Origin: Vicugna vicugna
Lineage: Eukaryota
Direction of reading: 5' to 3'
Length of the DNA stretch: 64,000 bases
Assembly (NCBI GenBank): GCA_013265495.1
Contig: MU057801.1
Coordinates: 3,006,765 to 3,070,764, forward strand
A program made the translations under genes and the position numbers. Of the stretch, positions 3,255 to 60,864 are shown one piece after another. Under the pieces are notes generated by a model. It saw only the letters and a list, made by a program, of their open reading frames with translations. It did not search any database and had not been told where the DNA came from. Position 1 is the stretch's first letter, and each line of letters starts with the position of its first letter.

Positions 3255-3911
3255 CTAAGCTGACACACTGACTCTGCAGTCTATACTCTGTAAGAGAGCA
3301 GGTAATTCCAGCACAGAAGAAACTATATAATGCGGCATGGGGGATGACTTCAATGGCACTGTTCCATTTCTGTTTATCCAGACCGTTGCTTTCAGCCCGG
3401 CATTGAGGCCTCCTTGAATATCGGTTTCTAGGGTGTCCCCAACCATCACGCAGTCCCCAGGCTGGACTCCCAGAAGATCACACGAGTAATAAAATATGGA
3501 AGGGGCTGGTTTCTCCTCTTCCTGTTCTCCACCTACAACAATAGCATCGAAATAGGACTGACAGGCACAAGCCTCGATCTTCTCCCTCTGTGTCTGTCTT
3601 TCTCCATTTGTTAATAAAAGCAGGCGGACTTCCTTCCGAAGTTCAGTGAGCATGGCTTTGACATCTTCCGCTAGTGTCATATGCTGTAAACGTGTAGATT
3701 TCCACAGGAAATAACATTCTTCGGCCAATTTCCTATTGGCTGCACCACCTTTTGTTTCCTGGATCGCTTCCTCCCAGTGTGAAGTCCTTAGGTCAGTAAT
3801 GCAAGTATTGGAAGGATGGAAACACTCCTTGCTGAGTTTGACCTGAACTTTGTCACAGATGATTTCGGCCTCTTCTTTGTACTGGTATTTTGATTGTAAG
3901 AGCTTTATCAC
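3255..3911 (-). CDS. NANP: N-acylneuraminate-9-phosphatase (HAD family), coding exon 2
   Basis: Acceptor ttag|GTG at 3912/3911. Translation VIKLLQSKY...LLLLTNG...KPAPSIF...MVGDTLETDIQGG contains HAD motifs II-IV. Stop TAG at 3257-3255. Joins exon 1 in phase 0 to give 248 aa. Confidence 0.98.
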   Translation of the reverse strand: MIKLLQSKYQYKEEAEIICDKVQVKLSKECFHPSNTCITDLRTSHWEEAIQETKGGAANRKLAEECYFLWKSTRLQHMTLAEDVKAMLTELRKEVRLLLLTNGERQTQREKIEACACQSYFDAIVVGGEQEEEKPAPSIFYYSCDLLGVQPGDCVMVGDTLETDIQGGLNAGLKATVWINRNGTVPLKSSPMPHYIVSSVLELPALLQSIDCRVSVSA

Positions 3912-4089
3912 CTAAATAAGGGAAAATAACTCCATCAGCATACTCCATGTCTTTAACACTCATGCCCTGAGAAGCTGTGAGGCTACAAACCCAGAGCAGA
4001 GACAGATTTTAACTCCACTCCTCTGTCTTAAAGAAGCTCTATTACCATACCATTTCTGGTGGGAATTCGTCTTAATTTTCCCCCAATTC

Positions 4090-4235
4090 TTTGTTTGTTT
4101 GTTTTTTGGGGGGAAGGTAATTAGGTTTGTGTATGTATGTAGGTACGTATGTATTTATTAATGGAGGCATTGGGGTTTGAACCCAGGATCTCGTGCCTGC
4201 TAAGCTCGCTCTACCAAGGAGCGACATCCTCCCCC
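4090..4235 (-). mobile_element. tRNA-derived SINE (camelid vic-1 type)
   Basis: Reverse complement shows an A-box/B-box tRNA-like head (...cacgagatcctgggttcaaacccc) followed by a simple-repeat tail and a taattaccttcccc body. Confidence 0.85.
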
Positions 4236-4410
4236 TAAACTGGTCTTATTTTTAAAGACTACCAGAGTGAAGATCTCTCAGCCTCTCTAGTCTTTGTCTT
4301 AAGTCTACTGTCTTTCATTCTGGTCATGAACATATAAAAATAAAACGACTTATATTTAGTAAAACATTCAAACTTCCTTTTTTTTTTCTAAAGGTTCCAC
4401 CCTTCTCCTC

Positions 4411-4552
4411 TTTTTATTTATTTTTAAAATTTATTTTGGGAGGAGGTAAGTAGCTTTTTTAAATTTATTTTTTAATGCAGGTACTGACGATTGAACCCAC
4501 GACCTTGTGCGTACTAAGCACACACTCTACCACTGAGCTACACCCTTTCCCC
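4411..4552 (-). mobile_element. tRNA-derived SINE (vic-1 type)
   Basis: Reverse complement reads ggggaaagggtgtagctcagtggtagagtgtgtgcttagtacgcacaaggtcgtgggttcaatcg plus an A-rich tail. Confidence 0.85.
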
Positions 4553-5635
4553 TTTTAAAATGTTTAACAACTAATACTTAGACGCTTCCCAGAAATACCA
4601 CTAGTTCACCTAACCTTTCCTCTCCTTATGTTTTGGAGGCCTAAGTTAACACCATACAAAAGGGGACCCAACGCTATACTTGTAAAAACATGTGTGTGTA
4701 CCTCTAATGGAATCAAGCATGTTCAGTGATTTCAGCAGTTTAATGCCAGTGCTTCTCCCAAACTTAGCTTTCGAGAGTAAAAAACCTCAAGTAGTTCTGA
4801 GTCCCTCTCTTGGCCACACGGGCTCTGGACCCCTTATCACAGCCCCTTTTGTGCTCGCACAGCTCCTTCCTGGTTGTTTGTTAGCAGGTTCTTATCCCCT
4901 TGGCCTGTCTCCTAGCATTTACCAAGACCCTAACTTGGCAGCAGGATGCCCAAGGCTCAAATACATTGTTTCTGATCTTGTCTACACTCTGCAAGGGAGA
5001 TCCCTTTTAGAGATGAGGGACTGGAAGGTCAGGACTGTTAATAACTGGCCCCAGCTGAGGTTTAACCACATACTTGCCTACCTCCAAGGCCGTACGCTTG
5101 CCTTTGCACTACTGGACCAGGCACTGGAGACTGGACATCATGACCCCATCTGGTGGGGAAAATCACCACCGCAAATGCTGGGCTGAGTGCCTTGACAGGC
5201 ACACGAAAAACTGCGGAAATAAGGAGCAATCCTAGGGTCGTCGGGCATGGAAGGCAGAGAAGGCACCTTTAAACCAAGGAGTTACCGAGCCTTGAAGGTG
5301 GAGATGGGAGGAGGTTTGAATCATTCCAGACATAACAACAGCACAACGACAGAACCTGGAATTTTGTGAACTGGGAAAGGCAGCTGAGTTCAGGCACAAT
5401 GGAAGGCATGTGAAGGAGACGCTAAGAGGTGAGGCTGGAGAGGCTGCAGCGGATGCTGCCCCGATTCCCTGGCACGCGCTACCCTACACGTGCCCATGGC
5501 TTCATACCGCATGGACTTGGGCTTCTCTGCCTGAGAACTTCATCTGGCCAAGGGGCACCCATGCATATAGGCTGGAGCCAGAGTATAGCCCTAGAAGCAG
5601 GCCTCAACCAGTTAGAGGCAGAAACTGGTGTACCT

Positions 5636-5866
5636 CCAGTCACAGAGAACAAACTTATGGTTACCAGGGGTAAAGGGAGTGGGAAGGGATAAACTGGGAG
5701 TTTGAAAATTGCATCTCTTGGGGAGTGATGGAAATGTTAGCTATCTTGATTGTGGTGGTGGTTTTGCGGGTGTACACCGCATCTACCAAAATTCACCAAA
5801 TTGTACATTTTAAATATGTGTAGTCTATTGTACAGGAATGATACCACAATAAACATGTTAAAAAAA
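5636..5866 (+). mobile_element. L1 3' end fragment (variant tail)
   Basis: aacaaacttatggttaccagggg...gggataaactgggagtttg, then a tail ending in aataaa and poly-A. A related copy lies at 15352-15660 on the minus strand. Confidence 0.75.
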
Positions 5867-7735
5867 TACTTCTTCCAAGCTTTCAGGATCAAATTTCGAA
5901 AAAAAAGAAAATGAAATGGACATGCCTCTTGGGAGGGTCACGCAAAGCACAAAGCATGTCTGCGTGCTGACTCCCAGCGTTCCCCACTGTTCATACCGTT
6001 CCCTGCTCATTAATACAACCTGTCTGAGATTCCCTCCCTTCCCAGTCTTACTCCGTCACTCCCCTTCCTGGGATCCTACCCTCCGGGAACTACCTGCACT
6101 TGAAGTCCCTGTCTTGGGGACATCTGGAGAAAGGCAACCATGCCAAGCAGATTTTGGATCTTTGCAGATGAGTGCAGTACACTTAACTGGGACTAAAAAT
6201 TGTCTGTTGCTGAAGGAAAGCAGTGAAATAAGTTCAACTGTGTTGCCCTAAACTCTACAGGGAATAAATGAGCTGCTAGTCACGGCAGACACTCTATTCA
6301 CCTCCTGAACAGAGGAACAGCTGAACAGACACATTCTTCCTTCAGAGTATGAGAAGCACGTCACAGGTAAAAGGAACAGTTCTCAGGCTATGTGTGCTGC
6401 TCGGCAAATGTAAGAGTTAAAAAAGGTCCTGCTGGTCCGAGAAAAATGTATCAGCCCTAGGAGTTCTAGACAAAGGTAAAACACTGACACTTGTTGCTTT
6501 TTAAAGTTAAATTTCAATGAACAAATTCAGCTTATTCCATCTTCATAGTGATGTCACCGTCTTTTCTAGCAATGTCAACTGAACTACTCTTGAGGTATGA
6601 CTGCAGGTCACTCTAAAGTCCTTAGCAACACTACTGCCACACAATAAAAGGACACAGGCCTCTAGGACTCCACAGGACTCTTGCTGAAACAGGGCCTGGC
6701 TCAGTTAGTTAGTAAATGAGACTCCCAACAGAGATCCCACTGCCTGTACACCGCAACTGGTGATTCGTTAAGCACATTCTTGGGGCTCTGAAAGAGCAGA
6801 CTGGCTCACCTCAAAGGGGAGACTCTTTGTATAGGCATGGCATATTGCCCCCCCCAAGTTTCAAACCTGTTTCCCAACTTTGCCGTTTTGTCACACAGCG
6901 ACTAGTTACATATTCTTTTAGAATAACAAGCAGCATTTTAGTATCAGTGACATCTTTGGTGGGGGGAGCATTGTGTATCAGTCATTCACATATTACTATT
7001 AGTTCAAACAGAACTAAAGCCTAAGGTGCAAGAGTATATACATGACAGTGAGAACTCCCCAACGTCTGCACTGGGAGAACGGGGTTGTATCTGAACTGGG
7101 GCTGGAGGAAAAAGATCTCGAAGTTAGAGGTATGATGACATTTTCTACTTCAAAACTCTACTTAAGGGTAGAAACACAAAAAAAGGAAACTCTTCTACCT
7201 CTGGCTCTCTGGACCCAGAATTAAATTTAATCCTATCAGTACTAATGCTTAGCTGTGATTTAAGAAGACTTTTTGAGGGCTAGTGTGGGAACCATGTAAC
7301 ATTTTATAGCATATGATTATCATATGAAGTGGCTGAATTCCAAATGACACTAATTTAAAAAGACATGCTCACAAAGCATGACGGCTGCATACAGACTAAC
7401 AATTCAAGTGACGTTTGTTATTTTTAGTTCAAGTCTTTATTTAAAAATCATCTACTCAGTGAGGCCTGATCTGACCAACCTATTTTAAAATTTTAATTTT
7501 CTCCCCTCCATTTTTTCTAATACACTTATAAATATAAGCACGTTTATTATGTTCACTGTCATCCCCACTAGATAGTAAACTCAAAAACACAGAAATCTTT
7601 TTTGCTTTTCTGTAAAAGGCTTCCTAATTTTCTATAGAAGGCTTCCTCTTGAATAGTGACATTGAAAGACAGACCTGAAGAGGGTAGAAAGAAATAACTT
7701 TCCCAGATGATCAAAAAAAAAAAAAAAGTTAGAAC

Positions 7736-9518
7736 TGCCAAAGCATTACTGAAGAAAAAAGAATGAAGCTGGAGGAATAACCCCCCCTAGACTTCAGACA
7801 ATACTACAGAGCTACAGTCATCCATGGTATTGGTACAAAAACAGGCACATGGATCAGTGGAACAGAATAGAGCCCAGAAACAAACCCACAAATTTCTGGT
7901 CAATTAATCTTTGACAAAGGAGGCAAGAACATAATACAATGGAATAAAGACAGTCTCTTCAGCAAACAGTGTTGGGAAAATTGGACAGCTGCATGTAAAT
8001 CAATGAAGTTAGAATACTCCCTCACACCATACACAAAAATAAACTCAAAATGGCTTAAAGACTTAACCATAAGACAAGACACAATAAACCTCCTAGAAGA
8101 AAACATAGACAAAACATTATCTCACATACAAATGCTGTCCTAGTCTACTCAAGCAATAGAAATAGGAGCAAAAATAAACAAATGGGACCTAATTAAACTT
8201 ACAAGCTTTTGCACAGCAAAGGAAACCATAAGCAAAACAACTACCTATGGAATAGAAGAAAATATTTGCAAAAGATGAGACTGACAAGGGCTTGATCTCC
8301 AAAATATATAAACAGCTCATATGACTTAATTAGAAAAAAAAACAAACAACCCAATCCAAAAATGGGCAGAAGACATAAACAAGCAATTCTCCAATGAAGA
8401 CATACAAACGGCCAACGGGCACATGAAAAATGTTCAATGTCGCTAACTATCAGAGAAAAGCAAATGAAAACTACAATGAGGTATCACCTCACACCAGTCA
8501 GAATGGCCATCATTCAAAAGTCCACAAATGACAAATGCTGGAGAGGGTGTGGAGAAAAGGGAACCTTCCTACACTGTTGGTGGAAAACAGATCCAAAAAT
8601 GGGCAGAAGACATAAACAAGCAATTCTCCAATGAAGACATACAAACGGCCAACGGGCACATGAAAAATGTTCAATGTTGCTAACTATCAGAGAAAAGCAA
8701 ATGAAAACTACAATGAGCTATCACCTCACACCAGTCAGAATGGCCATCATTCAAAAGTCCACAAATGACAAATGCTGGAGAGGGTGTGGAGAAAAGAGAA
8801 CCTTCCTACACTGTTGGTGGAAAACAGTACAGAGATTCCTCAAAAGACTAAAAATAGACTTATCATTTGATCCAGCAATCCCACTCCTGGGCATATATCC
8901 AGAGGAACCTTAATTCAAAAAGACACCTGTGCCCCAATGATCATAGCAGCACTATTTACAATAGCCAAGACATGGAAATGAACTAAATGTCCCTCAACAG
9001 CTGACTGGATAAAGAAGTTGTGGTATATTTACATAATGGAATACTACTCAGCCATAAAAACGACAACATAACATCATTTGCAGCAACATGGATGTCCCTG
9101 GAGAATGTCATTCTACGTGAAGTAAGCCAAAAGAGAAAGAAAAATACTATATGAGATTTCTCATATGTGGAATCTAAAAAAACAAAAAAAAAAAGAGAAG
9201 AAAAAGTAGTGAACATAAATACAAAACAGGAATAGACTCATAGACATAGAATACAAACTTCTGGTTGCCGGGGGGAGGGAGGTGGGAAGGGACAGACTGG
9301 GAGTTTGAAATTTGTAGATACTGACAGGTATATATAGAATAGATAAACAAGATTATACTGTACAGCACAGGGAAATATATACAAGATGTCGTAGCTCACA
9401 GTGAAAAAGAATGCAACAATGTATATGTGTATGTTCATGTATGACTGAAAAATTGTGCCCTACACTGGAATTTGACACATTGTAAACCAACTATAACCCA
9501 ATAAAATAAAAATTTTTT
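7736..9518 (+). mobile_element. 5'-truncated L1 (ORF2 3' part + 3'UTR) in the NANP intron, with 13-bp TSD
   Basis: ORF2 C-terminal peptides ([22 protein letters not shown]), an L1 3'UTR, an aataaaataaaa tail, and TSD aaaaagttagaac at 7723-7735 and 9519-9531. Confidence 0.95.
8354..8827 (+). repeat. Tandem duplication, 2 x 237 bp, inside the L1
   Basis: 8354-8590 and 8591-8827 are identical apart from 3 substitutions I could see. Confidence 0.95.
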
Positions 9519-11342
9519 AAAAAGTTAGAACGGATATAAACAATCTGTATGACTCCTCCCCAAGCCGCAGGCAATGGCTGGACCTTTCCCCCTTCCTGCT
9601 TCATAAATCATTCAGATTTAGGAAAGCTGACATGTTACTTTTGAACAGGCCAACATTTATGGGTGTTGTGTTCTTATGTGATAAAGTGATCCTCGTATAG
9701 TTAATTCTGCACATTTCATAGGATATTCATAAAGGAAATGGTAACAGAACCAAGTCTGGAGAAATGGAGAACCATCCACCCAGCATTCATTCAACATTTA
9801 CCATGTTTCAAACATGATGAATAAGACAATTTTTCCCTCTTAAGAGTTTTTCCCTCACTATTTAGTTGTAGGCATCTCAGTTGCAAAAAATAACTGCAAC
9901 ATCCTTTGACAAGTGCATTAAAAGATATCTGAACAAAATACAGAGCTGGTATAAGGGAGGGTGTAAAGACCAGGGAGGAATACCATCTGATTTTTGTTTT
10001 GGAAATTTCACTGTGGTAGGAATGTAGAGGAAAAACTGGATGTGATAAGCCTGGAATCAAGGCAGCAACAGTCTCAATGACAGACACGCCCAGTTTTAAC
10101 TAAGACAAGGTCAGGGTTAGGGGCAGACTGGGTGACAAGGCGGATGGCAGCACAAATCTGAAACACTGGATACTATGTACTTCCCACACATTATATTAAA
10201 CCTAGTTGACAGGGTTACTGAGGACTAATATCACAATTCAAATTTTATAATGAAGATTTGAGACTTTGATGGTTAACTTGTTCAGGTGCTTTGAGCTAGG
10301 TAATGAGAGCTGTGATTCAAACTAAAACGTCTGATTTTAATGCCTAAACTCTTGGTCTATATCAAGAATTCGACTAAAACAAGCATTTAATCACAAAACA
10401 CTGGATGCGGCCTGCCAAGTACATGTAGGTAAACGTGTACTGTCTGCAGTTAGAGATACTGGAGGCAAGACAGCACAGGGTGACGCCCCTGGGGTCAGCA
10501 CCAAAGGCATGGGGATGGAAGGGATGGTCAACAGTGTTTAATGCTTCAGTGAAGCCAGTCAGACAGACTAACGTCCAGTGATTCTGGCAATTTGGTAAGT
10601 GCCTAAGGACGGTGAGTCTACTTCGTTCCAGAGGCAAAAACAAAAGATACATTGTAAAGGATTTGTGAATAAGCAGGAAGTAGAAACATGGAGATAATGG
10701 GTACAGATTTGTCTTCAAACACATGGCTGTCAAGAGAGGTAAAATCTTGTAGCAGAAGGGGCCAAGGGGGGCGTTCTTTTTAAAGTATTGGACAGGTCTG
10801 AACGCGCAGCAGGGGCGGAATGCACCAAGGAAGGGTGAAGACGCTGAGGGTTAGGGAGATAAAAACCTCAGGGTTGGAAGGATTAGTTGCTGAGAGTGGG
10901 TTTTTCCGATCTGATAACCCTCAGTTTTCTCCTTGAAGCTGAAGGCAGAGGAAAGAAAGCAGGGCTGGCTTAGCGGCTCGAAGAGCACAGGAGGTCTGAA
11001 AGAGCACCAGTGGGCGCAGAGGAGAGGCCGCTGCTGAGCAAGCCCCGCGAAGCTCGGACCGGAGCTGAGCGTCCCCTCAGCAACCTCCAGAGGGCCACGC
11101 CCCCGGCAGGGACAGCGGGGGGCTTCCCGCGGAGGAAACTCGAGTCACCAGAAGAAAGGCCTGCCTCCCGGGTCCAGCGAAGACCACCCTCCCACGGTCA
11201 GTCCCGGCAGAACGCCAGGCCTCGCGGAGCGGCCGCCCTCCGTGCGCGGGGGCGACTCTGCCCTCGTGGCAGCTCAGCGACATCCTTCCGGCCGCCCGAG
11301 CGCCGGGCGCGCCGTCAGCCCCCGCCCCCGCTCCGCCCGCGC

Positions 11343-11483
11343 GGGGGGAACCAGGGCCTCCGGGACGGGAGCCCCCACCCCGGGGGGAGCCAGGGCCTCC
11401 GGGACGGGAGCCCCCACCCCGGGGGGAGCCAGGGCCTCCGGGACGAGAGCCCCCACCCCGGGGGGAACCAGGGCCTCCGGGAC
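11343..11483. repeat. GC-rich 39-bp minisatellite, about 3.6 copies, NANP intron 1
   Basis: Unit ggggggaaccagggcctccgggacgggagcccccacccc, visible as 13-aa repeats (GGxQGLRDxSPHP) in the ORF track. Confidence 0.95.
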
Positions 11484-11602
11484 CAAGGGCCTTCGGGAAC
11501 CAGGAGCCCCGGCGCCAAGCAAGCCAACAGGGCAGTGGGCCGGGGCCTGAGGGGTCGAGGGCGCCTGGTACGCCGGAGGGGGCGCGGGAGCCGGGACGTT
11601 AC

Positions 11603-11692
11603 CTCCAACATGCCCTTCCGACTCGCCCCGGCCGTGTCGATGAGCGTGTTGTCCAGGTCGAAGAAGACCGCCCGCACCCGGCTCAGCCCCAT
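11603..11692 (-). CDS. NANP: N-acylneuraminate-9-phosphatase, coding exon 1 (30 codons)
   Basis: MGLSRVRAVFFDLDNTLIDTAGASRKGMLE with HAD motif I (DLDNT). Donor GAG|GTAACG at 11603/11602. Confidence 0.98.
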
Positions 11693-14600
11693 GCCGCCGG
11701 CCGCCGCCCGCGCAGGCGCGATGCGGGCCCACCGGCGTGGGAGACGCGGGCGGAGCCTCGAGGCCGCTCGACCCTTCCGCGCTGTTTCGGGGAACTCCCG
11801 CGAGACGTCTCCCTACCTGAGCGCCGGCGAGCCGCGAGTTCCCGCGAGACTCCGGCATCGCGGTCTCCGGGCGCGCGGGGGCGTCCCGTCGTCGCGGTGC
11901 AAGCGGTTTTCTCAGCCGCTCGTGTGCGGCCGGTGCTCGGAAGTGCGGTCTCTGCCTTCGCGCCTGTCCCCGCTCGTCTCTTTCCTCCTTGTGCCCTCCT
12001 TGGGGGAGGAGGGCGCCAGGCTGCTGGAGAGCGAGTTCCTGGGCCCGGGACGCCCGGGAGGAGACGGAAGAAGCGGCCTCCCGGCCCGGTGGGGGTGTCC
12101 TCGCCCGCGGAGCGGCCGGCGGCGCGGGAGCGTCCGCCCGAGGCCGCGCCTCCGTGGGAGGGTTGCGTTCCGAGCTCGGAACGTGCGGCCCGGCCCGCCG
12201 AGCTCGCGCGGCCGGGGTGTGGAGCCGCGTCGGCGCCGGAGGCGGGCAGCCCGGGTCTGGAGGCCCTCGTTTGGCGGCGGCGCCTGAAGACCAACGTGTG
12301 TCCGCCTCGGCGGCCCTTCCTGAAGCCTCGGTTCCCGGGGGACTCGGTTGCAGCCAGAGGCCGAGGCACCTGGAGAGGCCGGTGACCCTGTGCCTTCTGC
12401 CGTTGGCGGAATCTGGTTCCTGGGCCGGGCCTTGTGTCCTGTCCGCACCGTCTGTGCCAGCGACCCCTGACGTGTGGCGCTGCGGCCGTCCCCAGGGACC
12501 AGGGGTTGCCCGCCCGGTGTAGGAGGGCACAGGCCGAACCTGGCCTGCTCCCTGGTTTTGTTGGGTCAGTGAGCTGAGTGGCTTTTTACTTCTTTTAAAG
12601 TAATGGAAAAAATCAAAGGGAGCGTATTCGTGACACGTGGAAACTAAATGAGATCCAGGTCTTAGGTCCACGGGTAGTTTTGCAGGGGCCCGGGCCCACT
12701 TCATTGACAGATTGTCTTGCTGCCTTTGCCCCACAGTGACAGAGTCGGCACTGAGGCCACGGGGCCTGCAGGGCCGAAAGCAGCGGCTGTCTGGAACTTG
12801 GTGGAAAAGGTCTGCCCGGCCCTGCGGCGCACGCCGACTGCCGGGCTGCTGACGTCCGGCGGGTGTGGATCAGCTGTGTCTGCGGTACCAGGCCGCCTCC
12901 GGCCGCGCGGACTGCAGTGTCCGCGTTTTGGGGCAGAATCACAGTCGACCTCTTTGCTGCTGTGGGAAATAGGCGAATGTCCATTCCTCAGAAGCAGGAC
13001 TCTCTGGTTACCCTGTTGACGTGCAGAGCTCGTCTATCAATATTGGTCGTTTAGATTAGCAGTTAGACGAAAGTCTGAGCGCATTGGTTGGAGTTACTTT
13101 TTTAATTGCCTGAATTGTCAGAATGAGTATTGCATAAAACTGTTTATGGACACATGAAGTTCATAGGATTGGAGCGATTTTCCTCCTTTCTCTTTTTTTG
13201 ATGTGCACATAGAGTTTATTGACCTGGGCGCAAATCCAAAGTCAGGATCCACAGCAATTGCGTGTGTAATCAGTCCTGGTTTGAGGGGTTGGGGTGTTTG
13301 ACAGGGTTCCCTGCGTGACAAGTACTCTAGTCCACCTCTGCTGCTTGCAGGGGGGTGACGGCCAGATACAGTGTGCCGATGACCGTTGTTTCTTCTAGTG
13401 AGATGTCTCCAGGTTTTCGGACGTTGCAGTTAACATTTGTGAACCAGTGAATTTTCCCGTGCACTTTAAGGCAGTGAGATGCACAAGCTTATAGATGGGC
13501 CTCAGGTTATTAAGCGGTCAGCTTGACGGAGTTGACACTAGAGGATGTTTTCACACTTGCAGGAAGCAAGGTCAAAATAAAAGATTAATAATTGTGAGAC
13601 TTGATGAAGGCACACAAGTGAAAACTAAACTACAGCACTTGCTTGTCCCACATTCTGCAGAACGGCACCGCTGCTGTGCAGCTGCTTCCACCCTGCATCC
13701 ACCCTGCCTTTTCCGCCCTGCCCTAGGGAAAGTCTTTTTCAGACCCTTCCCACCCACCTCATGTACAAGTTCATCGCAACTGCATGACTTCAGAAGAGAG
13801 TGCTGGGGGACACACGGAGGGGCCAGTGCCACAGGTGGTAAAAAGAATTTACCAAGAGCAAGAAGTTTAAGAACAAAGGAAAAGGTTAATAGTTGAGCTG
13901 CTGTAGGCAACAGCGGGCCGCATAGGTTCCTGCATGCCCATCGAGTGTGAACGTGCAGGACCTTTTATCAGCGAAGGGGCTGGGGACGCAAAGGGCGGGG
14001 GGAACAGCCTTCTGGCTGGCTGTAAACGAGATGAGGCGCTCTGGTACATGGGAGGATAGTGGACTTACGGCTCCAGGAAGGTGGAGACGTTGGCTGACAC
14101 CAGCAGGGGAGTGGGATTTATGACTCCGAGAAGGAGGAGACGTGGGCAGAGACGAGTCATTTCCATTTCCAGGGTGGTCAGTTCTGCTGAGGCAAACCCC
14201 TGTCAGGAGCTTGTCTTCCACAGAGGGGCAGGCAGACACGCCAGGGCTGGAAGTCGGGGCCGTGTGGCCTCGGCAGGCACCAGCTGTCCTGGCAGAGGTT
14301 TGCCCCGTGGGCTCAAGGTTTTCCCAGGATGGGCCATTGCTTAGCTGACAGGACAAAACAGAAACCACCTGGAGAGAGTCTCGCAGGCCCCACTCCACCT
14401 GCCCAGCTGTCACCAGCTGTCCCCTCCCCTGCCGGACGGCCTTACGTGAGCCGCCCCTGCTGCCTGTGTGGCTGAGCCTTCAGCTGTTTGCTAGATGCCC
14501 CGCTCCTACTTAGGGACATCTTTTCAGCAGTTCTTCCCTCCTCTCTCTGCATCAGCAGCGCCCTCCCACCGTTGGACCCACTCCTCTCACTCACAGCGCT

Positions 14601-16789: not shown

Positions 16790-17197
16790 TGTTACTGAAC
16801 CCGTTTTTATGCCTGATGCACAGTGAGGCCAAAAAATACCGAAACGTCGGCGTTTGGAGCAGAGAAAGGTTTATTGCTGGGCTGAGCAAGGAGATCTGGT
16901 GGCTCATGCCCCCAGAACCCCAAACTCCCTGAAGGGTTCCAGCTGAGCAATTTTAAAGGCGGGCTGAGAGGGGAGCGTCCTTGGGTGACCAGCTGTGCAC
17001 AATTCTCTGCATGGCCTTAGGTGCCAGAAGGTCTGGGGGCTGTGTGCCCATGATCGTCCAGTAGTTGATTTCTTCCATTTGATGGTGGGTTTTAGCATGA
17101 GATACTATCATCTGGGTCCTTCAGAGAGGAGCTACAGCAGAGGGCATGAGAGAGGGGTCTGCCCCCAGAAGGCCCCACAGGGTCCTGTGCAGTTACA
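16790..17197 (-). mobile_element. Solo LTR, ERV1-like, 408 bp, with 4-bp TSD
   Basis: TGTTAC...GTTACA termini; TSD CTGT at 16786-16789 and 17198-17201; minus-strand AATAAA (tttatt at about 16870). Confidence 0.85.
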
Positions 17198-17279
17198 CTG
17201 TTACTTGGTGATTAGCCCACAGCCCCAGGGAGATTGGAACAAATGCACCAGCCCCCACTTAAAATACGTGGGCAGACAC

Positions 17280-17520
17280 AGATAGCTGCCTTTTGTATGA
17301 TTTCATTGATAGGGAACGTCCAGGAGAGGTAAAGACACAGAGAGAAAAAGGGGATTGGGGGGTTGTTGGGGGCAGGGGAGGGAGGAAGGGGAGTGTGCGC
17401 TTTAGATTCAGGGTTTTACTTGGAGGAATGAAGTAGTCTGAAACTAGACAGTGGTGATGCTCGCACAGCATTGTGAATGCACTTATTGCTCCTGAATTGC
17501 ACAATTTAAAAGGGAAAAAG
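17280..17520 (+). mobile_element. Old L1M (L1MB-like) 3' end
   Basis: aaactagacagtggtgatgctcgcacagcattgtgaatgcactta...gaattgcacaatttaaaa is a typical L1M 3'UTR end. Confidence 0.75.
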
Positions 17521-17526
17521 TAAATT

Positions 17527-19132
17527 TTTATTGTAAACTTAAAACATAAAAAATAGATGACACCATAAATAACATAAAAGAAAAAGAGGAAATTACAGAG
17601 AACCCAAACAAAAATAATGCCAGGGGAAGGGAAGTAAAGTTCAGGTGTGGGTGTGGGATGATGGTGAGAATTCAGAGATGACGGTGCTGGTGGCTGCAGG
17701 GGCAACTCAGCCTGTGGGGATGGTGATGCCCGAATTGGCTCTGGGTTGCCTAGAGGTGGAGGTGCAGGTGCGGGCACAGGGTCTCCCTGCAGGGCTGGTG
17801 GAATATGGCCCAGCTCTGGGTCTCCTGCAGGAGCAGGCGCAGCCCCTCCTTGCTGGCGTGGTGTTTCCTCATCTCGCTCTGGGTCTCCTGCTGGATCAAA
17901 ATCTTCCTATTTTGGGTCTCTGGCATTTTCCCCTGCCCCTACCTCCTCTGGATCTGTATCTGTTGGAAGTGGAGAGAACTTTAAGTCTAGTGGAAGTGCT
18001 AAAGCTGTGAGAGAGGAAAAATTTACCCACATGCTTCCCTTTCCATGTGCCTTTTCAAGGACAGAAATCTTCCCAGAACTTTCCAGACGAGTCCCACCCA
18101 GGAACTGCCCACAGGATGTGTTCTGTGACCGCGCTCCACCAGATGGGTGGTCTGAGGCCTGTCTTTGCTCTGCTCCCAACAGCAGCCTCTGGGGACTCCC
18201 TGTGTGGCCCAGCCCTCGCCCCTCCCTCACCTACACACATGCACCCAGCCCCGCCCTTCTCACCTTCGGGTTCTGCTGCAGTGGGCTCCAGGTCCTCCAG
18301 CTGACTTACCGGGAGGTGGGCATGGTGCTCCAGGTTGGAGCCAGGTGTGCTGAGCTGCCTGTCAGCCCTGGGCAGGACCCCGGGAGTGGCCTGGGTGGTG
18401 TCTGGGCAGGAGGCCTGCCCTGTTCATCTCTGGGCCATGGTTCTGGGCACCCCTATGTGTCCACACTCACTCGGATCCTGCACTGGCCCTTGGCAGTGTG
18501 GTGCTCCAGCCCCTCACTCGGTGGGGTGGAGTGGGTGTCCCCATCCACCACCAGCTCCTGTCTGATCTGCGGCGTGGGGCTCTGCAATGACAGTGACCGG
18601 CATCCGGCCCGGCCTGGAGGTCTCAGAACCCTGCCTGGCCAGCTTCACTGCTGCTTCTGCCCACTCGACCCTCTGCTGCCAGATCAGGCTCAGACCTCGA
18701 TCTGCCCAGGTAGTCACCCAGGAGGGAAGGGACACAGCCAGAGGGCTTGGGCTCCACCTCGGGCAGAAGGGCCCTGCCCCAGCTCTCCATGTCCCAGCCA
18801 GCCAGCTTTGACCTGGGTTGTGGACATGAGCAGCCCCTCAGGCCTCTGACCCCTCTTCAGCCTTCTCATGCTTGAGGCAGATCTCTCCTCATGACCACCC
18901 CACCTCCACCATCCAGGAAGGGGACGTAGGGCCACCCGGGTGGGATCCGAGTGGTGGCCTGGCCTGGGCAGGCCTGCCCTGGGCCTCCCTGTGTTACTTT
19001 TGGGTCCCTCTGGGCAAACAGCCAAAGGTGTCTGGGGTGAGACCTGACCCCAACATCTGCAGCATTGGAAAGGCCCTCGGTGCAGGCTTTCCTGAGACCA
19101 TGGCCTCAGGATATTGGGACACAACAGAGCAT
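17527..19132 (-). pseudogene. Decayed RALGDS-derived / CDRT15-like spliced gene (exons about 19132-18998, 18581-18471, about 18366-18264, 17959-about 17527)
   Basis: Exon A reads MLCCVPIS*GHGLRKA...SHPRHLWLFAQRDPK|gtaaca. Exon B (111 nt, cag|...|gtgagt) reads SPTPQIRQELVVDG...HHTAKGQCRIR. Exon C reads RQLSTPGSNLEHHAHLPVSQLEDLEPTAAEPE|gtgaga. Exon D is Pro/acidic-rich and ends in a hydrophobic stretch with AATAAA at 17532-17527. In-frame stops at 19108-19106 and 17909-17907. Confidence 0.75.
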
Positions 19133-20034
19133 GTCTGAGTGTCTCCAACCAAGTGAGCTGGGGAGGGGGCTTCTCTAGAAAGGGGGTGCCTGGTGACTAG
19201 GTTCCAAGTTCTGTTGAGCTCTGTTGTCCAGGGAGTGAGGTTGCTTCCTGGGGTCCCCTTACCCAAGCTTCCTCCTTACACAGAGCTCCCCAAGGGCCTT
19301 TCTGGGCGGCTGACTGCTCACCTCCCACCCCGTGCCATGTCCACACACAGTGACACCAAGCCAGCCCACCCCACAGCTGGGGAAGCCTGGGTGCAGCCAG
19401 GGCCGCAGCTCTGAGGACACAGCTGGGTTCAGACTCGGCTCCCCCCACTCAGCAGTGCTGTCACCCTGGACAAGCCACCTGCCTCCCAGGGTCTCCCCAG
19501 TCCCCCATCGGCACTATGGGGGTCATTCTAGTCTGTGCTTCCTAGGGAAGCCATCATGTCTCTAGACCTGTAAACGCCTCCTGCACCTGTCACCCCCACG
19601 GGCTGGCATCACAGGGAGCTCACGCACAGACTCAGCAAAGGAAGGGCCCCACAGAGGGCTGGCGGAGCACAGAGCACACCCCATATAGGCCGGGGTCCGC
19701 CCTGGGGTCTGGGGAAAGTCACTCTCCTTGCCGCCTGCTTCCCAGCTCCCTGTTGCGGGGGTTGAAATTAAACACAACTCTGACATCGTCTGCTTGGGCA
19801 TGCAACCTCCTAGGTCATTCTGTCCTGTCAGATCCAGGCCCAGTACCCCATCTCAGCCTCTGGGGTGGGCTGCCCCACAGTGGCTCCCTGCTTGTTGGCC
19901 TTCTGGTCACACGTCCTTGTGTGACCCCCACAGCCTCCTCTGCAGGGTGGATGGACATTGGGCCCGGGTTCTGACATGTAGACTGACTTGTGAAAATGTG
20001 CGTGACTTCCATTCATTCCAGCTCCAGTGTTCAT

Positions 20035-34146: not shown

Positions 34147-37100
34147 GGGGAGGAGCCAAGATAGTGGAGTAGAGTGATCCACAGCTCGCTCTCTTCCACA
34201 AATACACGAGGAATTACATCTACAAACCTGCTGAATTGCACAGAACACCTACTGAATTCTGGCAAAGTGTCTCTCATTTTGAAACACAGGAGGAGTCTCA
34301 CAAAAATCTGGTAAGGAAAAAGAAAAAAAGAAAAAAAATTTGGTGCAAGACTGGTCCTGCAGGGAGGGGATGGCATAAAAAGAAAGTCACCCTCACGCTG
34401 GGACACCCCTCTCCAGCTGGGAGGTCAGTGGGGACAGAAGCGGAGCTTCCAAGGTTCGGAGGAGAAAGCGGCAACTGTGTGGCAGACAGAACTGAAGGAA
34501 ACTGACACAGAGGGTCCCTGCGATCCCCGGCCCTAGGCACGAGCCTGCAGGGACAAGCTGGGACTGGCTGCTGGAGATCGGCGAGGAGCCCAGCAGAGGG
34601 CTGGGTCCCACTGCAAAGAGACAGCCTCAGGGGACTGGAGGGCAGTGTGAGCTCTGGCTGGGGGTGAGTGTGGAACAGAACAGCCTGGGAACCCCATAAG
34701 AAAGCACCACTGTTGTGGTGTGTGTGCGCGAGGGGCGCATGTAGCCACACCACAGCTGCTTTCTCTGCTTGGCTCCATTATTGGTGTGTTCTGGTGAGAA
34801 GAGGAATGGGGCTTGACCATAGCCATCACTGCTGTGGATGAAAGCTGAATCCACACCCAGCGGCCCTGCAGCTTCACAGATAAGACTGAGGTTTATTTAC
34901 AGCCCCAAGCAGAGAGGAGGGATTTGCTCTCTCTGGACCCTTTGCAGACCTGTGCCTCTGGGACTAACAGGCAGTGAGCAGAGTTCTGACTATGGCGGGG
35001 GCGAGTATGGGTATTTACAACAGGCTGGTGTATGGTACCATATGTGGAGGCCGGCTGGGGTCTGTGCCAACCCTGTGCTGGACCACAGATTCAGGTGTGT
35101 GACTGTACTTTTGCTATGGTGGGTGCAAGTACCTGACATTGGCAGTTTCTGGGGTTCAGAACCTAGGGGACACCAGAGCAGGTGGCCAAGATTCCTGCAG
35201 CTAAGGTGAGGATAAAGGAAGCATCAACAAAGAGTACTTTGTAAGCCCGCATAACAAGTGACAGACATCACCACAGAGGGCACTTCCCAGGGGACTCCTA
35301 CCCACTCTTCTTCCCAACTGAAGTGCTCCAACCCTGCCTAATACGCACCATAACTCAGAAACAGATTTAAATGAAATCCATAGAGCCAAAGAAATGTAAG
35401 TAAAATGAAGAAGCAGAGGAACCACTCTCAATTAAAAGAACAAGAGAAATCTCCTGAGAGAACAATCAATGGAATAAATCTCAATAGTCTATTAGATCAT
35501 GACTTCAAAAAGGGAATGGTCAACGCAATCAAGGAACTAGAAGAGACTATCACTAGAGATGGAAAATACTTTAAAAAGGAAATTAAAACTAAAGAGAAGA
35601 GCCACTTAAAAACAGAAAACTCAATTGCTGAGCTAAGAGCCGAAATGCAGGCAATCCAAAGCAGACTAGATAACGCCGAGGAACAAATAAGTGTCCTAGA
35701 AGACAGGATGACAGAAATCACCCAATCAGAACTGCAGACAGAAAAGCAAGTAAAAATCAATGAAAGCAATATAAGGAACCTGTGCGATAATATAAAGCAT
35801 GCCAAACTATGCATAATAGGGGTTCCAGAAGGAGAAGAGAGAGAAAAGGGGATTGAAAAGGTATTTGAAGAAATCATGACTGAAAACTTTCCAAACCTAA
35901 AGAAGGAAACAGATGTTCAGGAGGCACAGAGGGTCCCAAAAAAGAAGAACCCAAACAGATACACACCAAGACATATCATAATTGAGATGGCCAAAATTAA
36001 AGATAAAGAAAGGATTCTGAAGGCAGCAAGAGAAAAACAAAAGAGTTATTTACAAAGAAACCCCATAAGGCTTTCAGTGATTTCTCTACACAAATACTAC
36101 TGGCCAGAGGGAGTGGCAAGATACAATCAAAGTCCCGAATGAGAAAAAAACTGTAACCTAGGATACTCTATCAGGCAAGACTATCCTTTAAAACAGAAAG
36201 AGAGATCAAGAATTTCACAAACAAGCAAAAACTAAAAGAATTCAGCCATACTAAACCCATACTAAATGAAATATTGAAAGGGCTACTCTAAATTAAAACA
36301 AAATGGGAAGCTATAGAAATTAGAAAACCATAATTGGAAATGTGGAAACTATAGTGAATTGCAAGGGAATAAACATGAAGATGTAAATAAATAAATAAAA
36401 AAATAAAAATAAAGAATAACAAAATCGTAAAAGGTCAGAGAGGAGAGCAAGAAATATACATTTTTTTCTCTCTCTTCTTTACTATTTTTTTCTTTGTTCT
36501 TTTTAGGATGTGTTTGAGCCTACATGACTATCAACAAAAGCAAGCAGATATAATAAGGGGCTAACATGCCTGAAAAACAAGGTAACCACAAATCAAAACA
36601 TACAATAGGGTCACAAAAACCAAAAGGAAACCAAGCTAATAGAAAATAAAATTATCAAGCCACAAAAAGAAAAACAAAAAGGAAAAGAAAGGAACAAAGG
36701 GGAAACGCCAAATCAACAGGAAAACGAAGTTCAAAATGGCAATAAACACACATCTATCAATAATTACTATAAATGCCAATGTACTAAATGCTCTAATCAA
36801 AACACACAGAATGGCAGAGTGGATAATAAAACTAAAACTTACAATATGTTGCTTACAAGAGACCCAATTTAGAGTGAAAGACACACATAGATTGAAAGTG
36901 AGAGAATGTAAAAAGATATTTCATGGAAATGACAAGAAAGCAGGAGTAGCAATACTCATATCAGACAAAATAGACTTTAAAACAAAGGCCATAAAGAGAG
37001 ATAAAGAAGGACACTATATAATGATCAAAGGAGTGATGCAAAATGAAGATTTTTACACTCCTTAACATATATGCACCCAGTACAGGAACACATAAATATA

Positions 37101-39925
37101 TAAAACAAATAGTAACAGACATAAAGAGAGAACTTGATGGGGATACAATCATAGCATGAGAACTCAACATCACACTAACATCATTGGACAGGTCTTCCAG
37201 ACAGAAAGTCAATAATGCAATGGAGATACTAAATGAAACAATAGAATAGTTGGAACTGGTTGATATTTTCAGGACACTACAACCCTCCAAAACAGAATAT
37301 ACATTCTTTTCAAATGTTTATGGAACTTTCTGTAGGATAGACCAAATACTCAGCCACGAAAGAAACCTCAACAAATTTAAGAGGACAGAAATTATTCCAA
37401 GCATCTTATCTGACAATAATGGCAGGAGACTATAAGTCAACCACAGAAAAACAAATGAGAAAAAAATGACAGCATGGAGACTAAACAACATGCTACTAAA
37501 AAACCAATGGGTCAATGATGGAATCAAAGAAGAAATAAAAAAATACCCTGAGACAAATGACAATGAAAATCCAACCACACAAAATCTATGGCATGCAGCA
37601 AAAACAGTCCTAACAGGGAAGTTCAAAGAGATACAGGCCTTCCTCAAAAAGGGATAAGAATCTCAAATAAACAACTTAACCTATCACCTAGAAGAATTAG
37701 AAAAAGAACAAACAAAACCTAAAGAAAGCAGAAGGAAAGATATATTAAAGATCAGGGAGGAAATAAATAAAACAGAGATTAAAAAACAATAGAAAAAAAT
37801 CAATGAAACCAAGAGTTGGTTTTATGAAAGAGTAAACAAAACTTACAAACCTCTGGCCAGGCTCAACAAGAAGAAAAGAGAAAGTACACAAATAAACAAA
37901 ATAAGAAATGAAAATGGAGAGACTACAACCAACACCACAGAAACACAAAACATCATAAAAGAATACTATGAACACCTATATGGCAATAATTTGGATAACT
38001 CGGAAGAAATGGAGAAGTTTCTAGAAACATACATCCATCAAACATCCATCAAAACTGAATCAAGAATAAACAGATCATATGAACAGACCAATCAGTAGAA
38101 GTGAAATAGAATAAGCAATAAAAAAAAAAGCCTCCCTGCAAACAGAAGTCGAGGATCAGACAGCATCACTGGGGAGTACTACCAAACATACAAAGAAGAG
38201 CACATACCAATCCCTCTCAAACTCTTCCAAAAGATTGAAGAGGAGGGAGTACCCCAAACTCATTCTATGAAGCCATTACCCTGATACTGAAGCCAGACCA
38301 AGACACTACCAAAAAAATAGCTAAAGGCCAATAGTGTTGATGAACATAGATGCAAAAATCCTCAACTAAATAGTAGCAAGCAGAATCTAAAAACACATTA
38401 AAAAGATCATACACTATGATCAAGTTGGATTCATCCCAGGGACAAAGGATGTTTCAACATACATAAATCAATCAAGGTAATACACCACATCAACAAGAGA
38501 AAGGATGAAAATCACATGATCACCTCAATAGATGCAGAAAAAGCATTTAATAAAATTCAACACCAATTTATGATAAAAACTCTCACCAAAGTGGGTATAG
38601 AGGGAACATATCTCAACATAATAAAAACTATATATGACAAACCTACAACCAGCATAATATTCAAGGGTGAAAAGCTGAAAGCCTTTCCTCTAAAATCTGG
38701 AACAAGACAAGGATGCCCACTCTCACATTTCTATTCAATATAGTACTAGAAGTCCTAGCCATAACAATTAGACAGGAAAAATAAAAGTGTTCCAAACTGG
38801 AAGAGAAGAGGTAAAATTATCATTATATGTGGATGACATGATACTATATATAGAAAACCCTAAAAGCTCCACACAAAAACTACTAGAGCTGAGAAAAGAC
38901 TTTGACAAGGTAGCAGGATACAACATTAACATCCATAAGTCAGAGGCATTTCTTTACACTAACAATGAAATATCAGAAAAGGAAAGTAAAGAAACAATCC
39001 CTTTTAAAACTGCATTCAAAAAAGTAAAATATTTAGAAATAAATCTGACCAAGAAAGTTAAAGACTTATATGCAGAGAACTACAAGATGCTAAGGAAATT
39101 AAAGAAGACTTAAAGAAATGGAAAGATATCCCATGTTCTTGGATTGGAAAAATTAATATTGTTAAAATGAGCAAACTACACAAAGCAATCTACAGATTTA
39201 ATGTGATCCCTATCAAATTACCCAGAACATTTTTCACAGAATTAGAACAAATCATAATTAAAATTTATATGGAATCACAAAAGACCCAGAACTGCCCAAA
39301 CATTACTGAAGAAAAAGAACGAAGCTGGAGGAATAACTTTCCCAGACTTCAGAAAATGCTACAGAGCTACAGTAATCAAAACAGCATGATATTGGTACAA
39401 AAACAGACATATGGATCAATGGAACAGAATAGAGAGCCCAGAAATAAATCCACAAACTTTTGGTCAATTAATCTTTGACAAAGGAGGCAAGAACATATAA
39501 TGGAGTAAAGACAGTCTCTTCAGCAAATGGTGCTGGGAAAACTGGACAGCAGTATGTAAATCAGTGAAGCTAGAACACTCCCTCACACCATACACAAAAC
39601 TAAACTCAAAGTGGCTTATAGACTTAAACATAAGACAAGATACTATAAACCTCTTAGAAGAAAACATAGGCAAAACATTATCCAGCATAAATCTCAGCAA
39701 TGTTCTCCTGAGGTAATCTACCCAAACAATAGAAATAGAAGCAAATTTAAACAAATGGAACCTAATTAAAGTTACAAGCTTTTTCACAGCAAAGGAAACC
39801 GTAAGCAAAACAAAAAGACAGCCTACAGAATGGGAGAAAATATTTACAAAAGACGAGACTGACAGGGGCTTAATCTCCAGAATATATAAACAGCTCAAAC
39901 AGCTGAATAAGAAAAAACAAACCCA
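34147..39925 (+). mobile_element. Near full-length L1, 5' part: 5'UTR, ORF1 (35405-36291, frameshifted), ORF2 (from 36736, disrupted)
   Basis: ggggaggagccaagat start; ORF1 MKKQRNHSQLKEQ...IIGVPEGEE...TPRHIII; ORF2 EN (ICCLQET) and RT ([14 protein letters not shown]) motifs with stops and frameshifts. Confidence 0.97.
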
Positions 39926-42900: not shown

Positions 42901-42981
42901 TGTATGTTCCTATATGACTGAAGTATTGTGCTACACCAGAAATTGACACAACATTGTAAACTGACTATACTTAAATAAAAA
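39926..42981 (+). mobile_element. Nested L1 with 5'UTR and ORF1 (41254-42156, frameshifted) joined directly to the extreme 3' end; ORF2 almost entirely missing
   Basis: Starts gagaagcaagatggcggag with an intact YY1-type CAAGATGGC. Junction ...gcaaggaaa|gccactgtggaaaacag at about 42298/42299. Ends ctgactatacttaaataaaaa. Confidence 0.93.
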
Positions 42982-42990
42982 TATATTTTT

Positions 42991-43929
42991 AAAAATGGGC
43001 AGAAGACAGACATTTCTTCTAAATAGACATTTCTCCATTGAAGACATACAGACGGTGAACAGGAACATGACAAGATGCTCAGTATCACTAATTATTAGGG
43101 AAATGCAAATCAAAAACTACTATGAGGTTTCACCTGTCACCAGGTAAATGGCCATCATTAAAAAGTCCACAAATGATAAATGCTGCAGAGGATGTGGTGA
43201 AAAGGGAACCCTCCTATACTGTTGGAGGGAATATAAATTGGTGCAGCCACTTTAAAGACAGTATGGAAGTTCCTTTAAAAACTAATAGTTACCATGTGAT
43301 GCAGCAATACTACTCCCGGACGTGTATCTAGAGAAAAACGTAATTCAAAAAGACATCTGCACCCCAGTGTTCACAGCAGCACTATTTACAACAGCCAACA
43401 CATAGAAACAGCCTACATGTCCATTGATAGATGAGTGGATAAAAAAGTTGTGGTAAATTTCTACAATGGAATGCTACCCAACTATAAAATATTATAAAAT
43501 AATATCATTTGCAGCAACATGGATGGACCTGGAGATCATCATTATAAGTGAAGTAAGCCAGACAGAGAAAGAAAATACTACATGATATCACTTAGATGTG
43601 GAATCTTAAAAAAAAAAAAAGATACAAATGAACTTATAGAAACAGACTGACAGACATAGAAAACAAACTTATGATTCCCAGGGGCGAAAGCGAGTGGGAA
43701 AGGATAAATTGGGAATTTGAAATTTGCAGATACTAACTACTATATATAAAATAGATAAACAACAAGTGTATACTGTGCAGCACAGGGAACTATATTCAAT
43801 TTCTTGTGACCTATAATGAAAAAGAACATGGAAACAAATATATGTATACATATGTATGACTTAAGCATTATGCTGTATAGTACAAATTGACACAACATTG
43901 TAACTGACTATATTTCAGTGAAAAAAAAA
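42991..43929 (+). mobile_element. L1 3' part resuming where the 34147 element was interrupted
   Basis: aaaaatgggcagaagac normally follows aaacaaaccca (39925; compare 8341-8372). Ends in 3'UTR and poly-A. Confidence 0.9.
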
Positions 43930-58785: not shown

Positions 58786-59467
58786 AGCAGAGAATGCTGG
58801 CCTGTCAGTGGAAGGTTGCCCACATAGAAGGTGGGGAGGGACTAGCCAAAGCGAAACGGAGACTAACCAAGAGGTTGGCGTGGAGCAGACCCAAAATTTA
58901 AGGAGGCATTCTCTCTTGGAAGTGTTGGAGCTCCCCGTTTGAACCTGAGAGTGAGTTCCTCCTTTAATTGTTTTCCCTAGTAACCTGACTGCCTCACTCC
59001 AATGCTGGCCCATGTCAAAGGTCAAGAGAGCTGGGACTACCCTGAGCCCTGCATAGGCTCAGATTTGTCTCCACATGAAACTTGGATTTGCGCGCTAAGG
59101 TGAACTGAGAGAGACCCAGGGACTAGAAATCAAATTCCTCATGCCTTGAATCGCTCTGTGCTCATGCAGGGCCATCCCCTTCCTCCCCTACTGGAATGAG
59201 ACTCAATGAACACTCCAAACTGAGACAGACCCCCACTCGCAACTCTTACGTCTGCTCCTTTGCGGACAGATGGCTCTCCAGACTGCCTCTGCTGGGGAGT
59301 CACCTTGGCCCTAAAGCAGGGTCCCCTAAGGGTGGTAATGCACTTATTCCCGGGAGTCAGTGTTCTATCTTCTAGGCCTGCAGGACAACTGCTCCTCTCC
59401 AGTTCCGTGAGCGCACACTTCGAAGAAACTGAAAGGCATGGGGCCAATTGTTAAGGCAACGCGGGTG

Positions 59468-60177: not shown

Positions 60178-60265
60178 CTGGAGCAGTTCAGAGAGGCCCC
60201 GAAGAGAACAAAGACGTGGCGGGGCGGGAGGTGGGAGGTGAGCAGTAGCTGGGGGCTGGGCTTAC

Positions 60266-60864
<599 letters not shown>

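Follow-up and report, generated by a model that had tools for sequence, protein, structure and literature searches.

Four hidden minus-strand segments, here called exons A through D, had been proposed in the initial annotation for part of the window (the whole stretch of 64,000 nucleotides that was analysed). All four are present with GT/AG ends, and the phases fit, the A-B join being phase 0 and the C-D join phase 1. In the direction of transcription, the locus consists of the following features:

19133..19900, minus strand: 5' flank or promoter region, covered by many contigs of DNA run X2 that are 85-99% alike; the duplicated unit includes this flank
18998..19132, minus strand: exon A, 135 nt, with a phase-0 donor, a Met-x-Cys-Cys start and a basic segment, the last two also found in RalGDS-like and CDRT15 proteins
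18935..18997, minus strand: extension of exon A inside the putative intron 1, ~21 codons, part of the coding sequence of CDRT15/CDRT15L2 and of certain RalGDS-like isoforms in bats
18471..18581, minus strand: exon B, 37 codons (111 nt) with phase 0 at either end; its homologue in the alpaca is residues 46-77
18367..18470, minus strand: B-C interval, the presumed junction of a REM deletion, coding in alpaca models
18264..18366, minus strand: exon C, corresponding to the last part of the REM-region exon in RalGDS-like genes, its 3' end in phase 1
17960..18263, minus strand: C-D intron, 304 nt, GT-AG, phase 1
17622..17959, minus strand: exon D, a Pro/Ala/acidic stalk, with homology at its 5' end to the linker exon in RalGDS-like genes
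17533..17621, minus strand: tail segment resembling a transmembrane (TM) helix, T-rich (59% T, 25% GC)
17527..17532, minus strand: AATAAA, a putative poly(A) signal, placed where the alpaca proteins end
17260..17545, minus strand: interspersed repeat, also included in the duplicated unit

Some boundaries call for comment. Logan protein P0003 could be aligned from 19483 into exon A, and the stretches matched by P0005, P0007 and P0012 (described below) reach query residue 65-66, past the exon A donor. Since the CDRT15 and bat matches run on in this way, the first ~60 nt of "intron 1" can be regarded as an optional coding extension, present in Molossus P0012 and absent from P0035. Exons B and C lie only about 100 nt apart, and no clear ancestral acceptor was found at the locus for the 5' boundary of exon C; as an alternative, an in-frame intron of 80 nt is possible, with its acceptor before 18390. 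The stalk encoded by exon D consists of degenerate direct repeats of 39-75 nt (window 17600-17960), and at 17621, where stalk gives way to tail, GC content drops from 59% to 25%.

As it stands, the copy carries at least 5 lesions. Codon 9 of exon A is TGA (19108), the same exon has a pair of compensating indels (about 19072 and 19046), and TAG interrupts exon D 17 codons in (17909). The two nonsense codons and the indel pair had been recognized in the initial annotation, but reading through B-C as a single exon, as in all seven representatives of the alpaca clusters described below, adds a third stop (TAG at 18455) and two +1 shifts (about 18389 and 18373). Likewise, the hydrophobic end of the tail and the AATAAA are both where they had been said to be, but the family stop codon has been lost (it is out of frame), and the reading frame continues without a stop to 17259. 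The copy is a pseudogenised family member that very probably makes no protein. Assembly error was considered as the source of the exon A lesions and was ruled out, because a contig of X2 (a run that may not be independent of the sample that was assembled) spans 18971-19165 with zero differences at depth 47, which places these lesions in the reads. At 17909, contigs 96-97% identical to the window copy, from RNA runs X16 and X18 of a species other than that of the window, have an open codon (AAG in 4/4 and 1/1, respectively), and so the TAG is probably young.

The copy had been described as a dead member of a lineage-expanded family, and the rest of that family can be seen in the alpaca, Vicugna pacos. 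A search with residues 1-150 of the alpaca protein P0006 confirmed 7 of 758 candidates, all of them alpaca, at 82-100% identity. These seven clusters represent 20 sequences on 7 contigs (XP_072821441.1, XP_072796879.1, XP_072816817.1, XP_072807712.1 and kin), and in them residues 1-150 are open. All are gene models, labelled "uncharacterized protein" or, in UniRef, "Skin secretory protein xP2-like"; the latter label appears to fit their composition only. By tblastn, exons A, B, C and D of the window are colinear with the alpaca proteins. Exon C is 66% identical to residues 103-137 of P0006, and exon D plus tail aligns with P0043 (E 3e-31) as far as 17535. Proteins matching exon D come from V. 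pacos only. The models share with the window copy the order A-B-C-D, the C-D join and a homologous TM-like tail. They differ from it in being open, in reading B-C as one exon, in having longer stalks of Pro/Ala repeats and in stopping at the end of the helix. The window copy belongs to a diverged subfamily, about 50-60% identical to the alpaca models and carrying stops and shifts.

According to the initial annotation, the tail would be just T-rich 3'UTR if no paralog anywhere had an open exon D ending in a TM helix. Such paralogs exist. A hydrophobic C-terminal helix (KD 1.85-2.59) is found in 8 of the 18 alpaca sequences scanned (of 20), and since many of the other 10 are probably isoform models or have frameshifted ends, 8/18 should not be taken as a count per locus. 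The idea that the tail is mere 3'UTR was accordingly rejected, the tail being open and terminal in paralogs. In the eight, the helix is the only hydrophobic one and falls among the final ~30 residues; the hydrophobic maximum of the alpaca proteins is C-terminal, and their N-terminus is basic. AlphaFold2 renders P0006 as disordered (mean pLDDT 49) except for a helix at 284-313 (pLDDT 83-96), while the ESM Atlas offers no usable match for P0043 or P0005. Against the alpaca tails, that of the window aligns gaplessly over 39-44 residues (z 12-13 in a shuffle test). The tail of P0046 looks locally frameshifted and is hydrophobic nonetheless. Stalk length evidently varies by repeat number, as an RNA contig repeats a 59-nt piece of exon D (17837 back to 17779) and the alpaca stalks are of unequal length.

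How many copies there are can be judged roughly from X2, in which 746 contigs fall on 2.7 kb of the locus: 56 at 99% identity or more, 141 at 95-99%, 322 at 90-95% and the remaining 227 lower. Depth is 43-48 for exact-match contigs and 882 for one diverged contig. This spread of contigs and depths implies a unit in at least tens of copies. Summed contig depth was rejected as a measure of copy number; it hints at more copies and nothing further. Runs X19 and X20, in which the shares are small, and 18 further runs were set aside as evidence. The tail bin is among those most diverged between copies. In RNA run X16 (labelled reproductive system), 17960 and 18279 are linked within one contig by 14 letters of other sequence. 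This is the spliced C-D junction of a paralog, the length of the gap being exact. The closest exon D contigs in X16 and X18 end at the D acceptor (17961), the point at which spliced forms would part from unspliced ones. Among the joints listed (15 of 28), none is an A-B or B-C joint, and RNA contigs cover introns and flank as well, so coverage is not restricted to exons.

Depth may also say something about how copies diverge. Considering X2 contigs at least 85% alike and leaving out 10 of 30 bins (mixed, repeat or B-C), the median depth was 3,354 over exons vs 23,968 over non-coding sequence (7 vs 13 bins, p 5e-5). The corresponding values were 97 vs 338 in X16 (p 0.014) and 52 vs 94 in X18 (p 0.54). 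As a lead only, this suggests that divergence between copies is greater in exons than in introns, as it is in duplicon families under positive selection; variation in the repeat length of D and fragmentation of contigs could also lower the depth over exons.

A search with exon A reached relatives beyond the camelids. With exon A plus the 21 following codons as the query (the stop given as X), phmmer found 14 matches at E<=1e-3 among 1.84 billion proteins; this signal, like the match of exon D to P0043, is well above chance. They include a CDRT15L2-like protein of Theropithecus (P0005, E 2.2e-6), CDRT15 of Cercocebus (P0007, E 4.1e-5), the alpaca proteins P0006 (E 2.6e-5) and P0010, a Molossus protein from a cluster named RalGDS-like (P0012, E 4.4e-4; 9e-11 by tblastn), Saccopteryx P0011 and a Rhinolophus fragment, P0009. 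Six of the 14 are Logan products without a name; P0014, a protein of 2985 aa at E 1e-3, probably matches by chance. Neither a word-index search with exon A (0/66 candidates confirmed) nor a scan of metagenomes (0/219) added to these, and Pfam has no family for any of the five locus frames or, at E 0.01, for the 14 matches.

The kinship with RalGDS was judged through proxies, namely the RalGDS-like proteins P0032, P0012 and P0047 and an invertebrate RGL (L001), rather than mammalian RALGDS itself. Of these, P0047 (the sole one confirmed of 615 candidates) has a RasGEF domain, with RGL2 as its best PDB match, and a RasGEF_N is weakly discernible in P0012 (E 0.019). Multicopy genes of this type are known from Molossus (XP_036118342.1, KAM7079675.1) and Pipistrellus (A0A7J7VV30). 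Each shuffle test used 2000 shuffles, and the p-values, from 30 tests, are uncorrected. Exon C resembles the end of REM in P0032 (residues 242-271, p 0.001) and P0012 (p 0.0065); taken alone, it gives no significant match to P0047 (p 0.34) or to the invertebrate RGL (p 0.71). Sequence comparison thus supports the derivation of exon C from the RalGDS family that had been proposed. Spliced to the start of D, exon C does better: p 0.0005 with P0032, 0.0005 with P0012 and 0.042 with P0047. The first 16 codons of D by themselves match the start of the linker in P0012 (p 0.009; P0032, 0.11; P0047, 0.82), and P0047 has a Pro/Glu-rich linker between the equivalent of the C/D point and CDC25. Beyond its first ~15 codons, exon D, most of which is low-complexity, has no significant match to RalGDS-like proteins.

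Exon B is harder to place. None of four tests against RalGDS-family proteins was significant (p 0.13 and 0.15, both Molossus, 0.73 and 0.30), and hhalign gave E 0.17. With the Molossus proteins, the alignment falls on the expected exon. RalGDS-like genes have an exon of 35-37 codons before REM, and exon B, of 37 codons, stands at the same place. From position and length, exon B is likely to descend from the pre-REM exon of RalGDS genes. That exon occurs in two to three tandem copies in the bat RalGDS-like proteins P0012 and P0047, which makes it a duplication unit in itself. A comparison of alpaca and bat profiles by hhalign recovers exon A and the start of B only (E 3.7e-5), and in the PDB nothing beyond chance matches emerged for exon B, exon C, P0012 or the profile of the bat proteins.

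The loss of the GEF domains asserted in the initial annotation was borne out. No frame of the locus matches REM (PF00618) in Pfam, neither tblastn nor profile searches find the REM core in the window, and queries with P0047 and L001 for CDC25 RasGEF (PF00617) and RA gave no match better than E 0.3 anywhere in the window. RalGDS-like genes share with the locus exon A (with its optional extension), the REM-end exon and the start of the linker, but they keep a degenerate REM, and P0047 keeps CDC25, whereas the camelid family has neither. Since Molossus members of the RalGDS-like genes also lack CDC25, loss of GEF is evidently common in the duplicon and by itself nothing special. The Ral exchange factors RALGDS and RGL1-3, which consist of REM, CDC25 and RA (all three absent from the locus), are presumed to be the ultimate parent by way of RalGDS-like genes. 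RGL4 is described in the available text of PMC3141262 as the variable member of the RalGDS family, with multicopy expansions unmentioned there. L001 itself was one of 4 confirmed candidates out of 163 in a metagenome scan with a CDC25 piece. It is an intronless RalGDS/RGL coding sequence (217-2447 of a JGI contig) with RasGEF_N, RasGEF and RA, probably an invertebrate mRNA, and is too distant for testing B or C; at the N-terminus it can be aligned to the pre-REM repeat of bats (E 0.001).

A link between the locus and CDRT15 had also been suspected, and it held up. Primate CDRT15 and CDRT15L2 (A0A2K5N3C0; XP_025218684.1) have, like the locus, exon A with its extension (45-46% over 65 aa), followed by a likeness to the end of REM and the linker of RalGDS-like proteins. 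CDRT15 matches the RalGDS-like protein P0031 in two colinear pieces, residues 1-64 (E 8e-9) and residues 53-109 on 281-337 (57 aa, gapless, E 0.011). Shuffle tests of CDRT15 67-124 gave p 0.005 with P0032 and 0.003 with P0047; CDRT15L2 68-125 was significant against 1 of 5 targets. Neither primate protein is significant against C-D of the window (CDRT15 67-124, p 0.15), and by blastp P0005 matches P0043 in the N-terminus alone. The primate proteins lack exon B, the extended A passing straight to the end of REM, whereas the locus keeps B between. In CDRT15L2, a Pro/acidic stalk is accompanied by one hydrophobic helix (KD 2.75), with ~50 residues beyond it; such a helix is absent from CDRT15 (KD 0.88). 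The helix of CDRT15L2 shares with the camelid tail a match of 6 residues (p 0.0625), and no homology is detectable. The best reading is that CDRT15/CDRT15L2 is a sister derivative, formed by a larger deletion that joined an extended A to the end of C. In the literature, the kinship of CDRT15 with RalGDS-like genes was found stated nowhere, nor was anything found on a camelid RalGDS-like family or duplication, though subscription papers and supplements may hold prior descriptions of either. The accessible part of a 2023 paper (PMC10403009) leaves the function of CDRT15 open and contains neither "Ral" nor "transmembrane". In what is available of a rat genome paper (PMC13477028), Ralgdsl11 and Cdrt15l2 are placed about 40 kb apart on chromosome 16, and from their proximity annotators may already have met the link.

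Where might the tail have come from? Both open frames of the three score as TM (2.25 and 2.17). In T-rich DNA of the window, 282 of 673 frame positions (42%) give such a helix, against 2156 of 127,816 overall (positions overlapping). Such helices being common in T-rich DNA, the hydrophobicity of the tail is what its composition would lead one to expect, and alone proves little; as judged from the sequence, a membrane anchor is plausible. The repeat adjoining the tail (17260..17545) is, we assume, the 3' end of an old L1 antisense to the gene, whose poly(A) would presumably read as poly(T) exactly at the position of the tail. A self-search found no match between the repeat and other L1 ends in the window. 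All 13 aligned raw reads of X24 fall within 17200-17654, 9 of them under 90% alike, with a fraction of 0.77 running on into unlike sequence. Given the 59% T, the two hydrophobic frames, the lack of relation to CDRT15L2 and the apparent antisense L1 next door, the tail was probably born de novo. Precedents exist for parts of this: antisense L1 pieces can be exonised and cause premature polyadenylation (PMC2176070, in the part available), and "TM-first" membrane proteins have been proposed to arise de novo from thymine-rich DNA in yeast (PMC7005711, likewise). In the yeast cases, as in the camelid tail, T-rich non-coding DNA supplies the TM helix, but there whole ORFs emerge, while here what remained of an old gene, within a mammalian duplicon, acquired a tail.

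The bat Saccopteryx offers another hydrophobic stretch. P0011 (XP_066089168.1), a RalGDS-like derivative labelled "CABYR-binding protein-like", has exon A, a Pro/Glu stalk and a Phe-rich stretch at about 320-345 (KD 1.96), possibly a third independent anchor. The camelid tail has no detectable homology to the bat helix (p 0.30), and a single shared origin of the camelid, bat and CDRT15L2 helices was rejected (p 0.30, p 0.06).

These observations can be drawn together as follows: the locus would be a pseudogenised member of a camelid multicopy family that stems from the mammalian RalGDS-like duplicon, with the history and the tail-anchored product sketched here (probability about 0.6). In the ancestor, exon A would have been accompanied by a pre-REM exon, by those for REM, by a Pro-rich linker exon and by those for CDC25. 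Loss of most of REM through an internal deletion would have brought B and C to within about 100 nt of each other, and the gene would then have been cut inside or just past the linker exon, beside an antisense L1 end. Read-on into T-rich DNA could have provided about 27 hydrophobic codons, a stop and AATAAA. Intact members would make a disordered cytosolic protein of ~310 aa, devoid of GEF activity and tail-anchored by one C-terminal helix, with Cys-Cys and the basic N-terminus as a probable second, S-acylated contact with the membrane (the Met-x-Cys-Cys start and basic N-terminus resemble what we take to be motifs of the GAP-43 type). Such a protein might act as an acidic spacer or tether of variable length, most likely in reproductive tissue. 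CDRT15 and CDRT15L2 would be primate products of the same duplicon by a different deletion, the helix of CDRT15L2 having arisen separately. Established in all this are the family itself, the homology of exons A and C and of the start of D, the loss of GEF, the lesions, the homology and make-up of the tail and, in RNA, a C-D splice in a paralog; the sequence of events, the assignment to L1, the source of exon B, insertion into the membrane, S-acylation, the tissue and the tethering role are inferences.

The same history might have unfolded with no selected protein function at all, the unit being a passenger spread by segmental duplication, its young copies staying open and its tail a by-product destined for degradation by quality control. 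T-rich composition by itself yields such helices (2/3 of the tail frames score as TM), the apparently frameshifted tail of P0046 is still hydrophobic, 10/18 alpaca models have no tail, the window copy has no fewer than the 5 lesions described and RNA coverage extends beyond exons. Yet the tail, although built of T runs, aligns with alpaca tails without a gap, residues 1-150 have stayed open in seven alpaca clusters (82-100% identity), a C-D junction is spliced in RNA and the indels listed near the 3' end fall past the family stop position (17519-17527; among the matches listed, 12 of 70). Selection-free spread is in our view rather unlikely, if a serious contender.

A product with a function, now decayed in the window copy, is preferred, and two departures from it fare worse. 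The initial annotation had seen an exon-shuffled gene in which D, foreign DNA behind RALGDS exons, replaced the CDC25 domain. Most of D is indeed low in complexity and, past the first ~15 codons, unlike RalGDS-like proteins, but the C-D join is colinear with the end of REM and the linker of P0032 and P0012 (p 0.0005), the first 16 codons of D match the linker start of P0012, and P0047 has a Pro/Glu-rich linker before its CDC25. Since the start of D matches the linker exon that follows C in RalGDS-like proteins, internal deletion and 3' truncation account for the arrangement, and shuffling is quite improbable. It might also be that the window copy is not dead after all, giving rise to a product by skipping of exon A or downstream restart, or else to a non-coding RNA. 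Close copies (96-97%) are indeed represented in the RNA of two runs, where the exon D codon is open and contigs stop at 17961, but those runs come from another species, and the window copy has its stops at codon 9 and 17 codons into D, no stop after the tail and no ATG-led frame of useful length that joins the exons. Survival of this copy is very improbable.

One might go further and regard the RalGDS-like duplicon as a recurrent nursery of mammalian genes, in which the Cys-Cys/basic exon is kept, GEF is deleted and helices are added independently from non-coding DNA: in camelids from the decayed poly(A) of an antisense L1, in primates in CDRT15L2 and perhaps in bats in P0011. Camelids would then have tens or hundreds of copies, with exons outpacing introns in divergence, as in positively selected reproductive families. 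This is tentative, and we would sooner bet against it than for it. Being a pseudogene, the locus is in itself of limited importance. Through it, however, CDRT15/CDRT15L2, an orphan primate gene, gains an origin (and, should the duplicon prove to be a nursery, a parent and a testable topology), and a mislabelled camelid multigene family is exposed. The family also offers a natural mammalian series in which to ask whether T-rich or L1-derived DNA is recruited as a working anchor in the membrane; the idea comes chiefly from studies of yeast.

The surroundings of the locus merit brief description. Downstream of the gene, at about 16830-16960, lies sequence resembling what is presumably the 3' part of an LTR. 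Further on, the minus strand of 3255-11812 carries a HAD phosphatase gene of two exons (Pfam HAD_2, E 5e-21), which we take to be NANP-like. Its intron 1 begins with a tandem repeat of 39 bp present 3.6 times (11342-11483), and an L1-like stretch of its intron contains a tandem duplication of 237 bp (8354-8827), the copies being 98% identical. On the other side of the locus, the minus strand of 57600-60900 carries a DUF4639 (C2orf81-like) gene at 59520-60864 and then a short-chain dehydrogenase gene at about 57650-58700. NANP and C2orf81 reside on different human chromosomes; the RalGDS-like copy and the L1-rich region of 21-55 kb may therefore lie at a synteny breakpoint, or the DUF4639 gene may be a paralog. 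Several L1 copies occupy 35375-43930, and among them are two remnants of ORF1 that are 80% alike, at 35384-36142 (Pfam Transposase_22) and 41354-42061.
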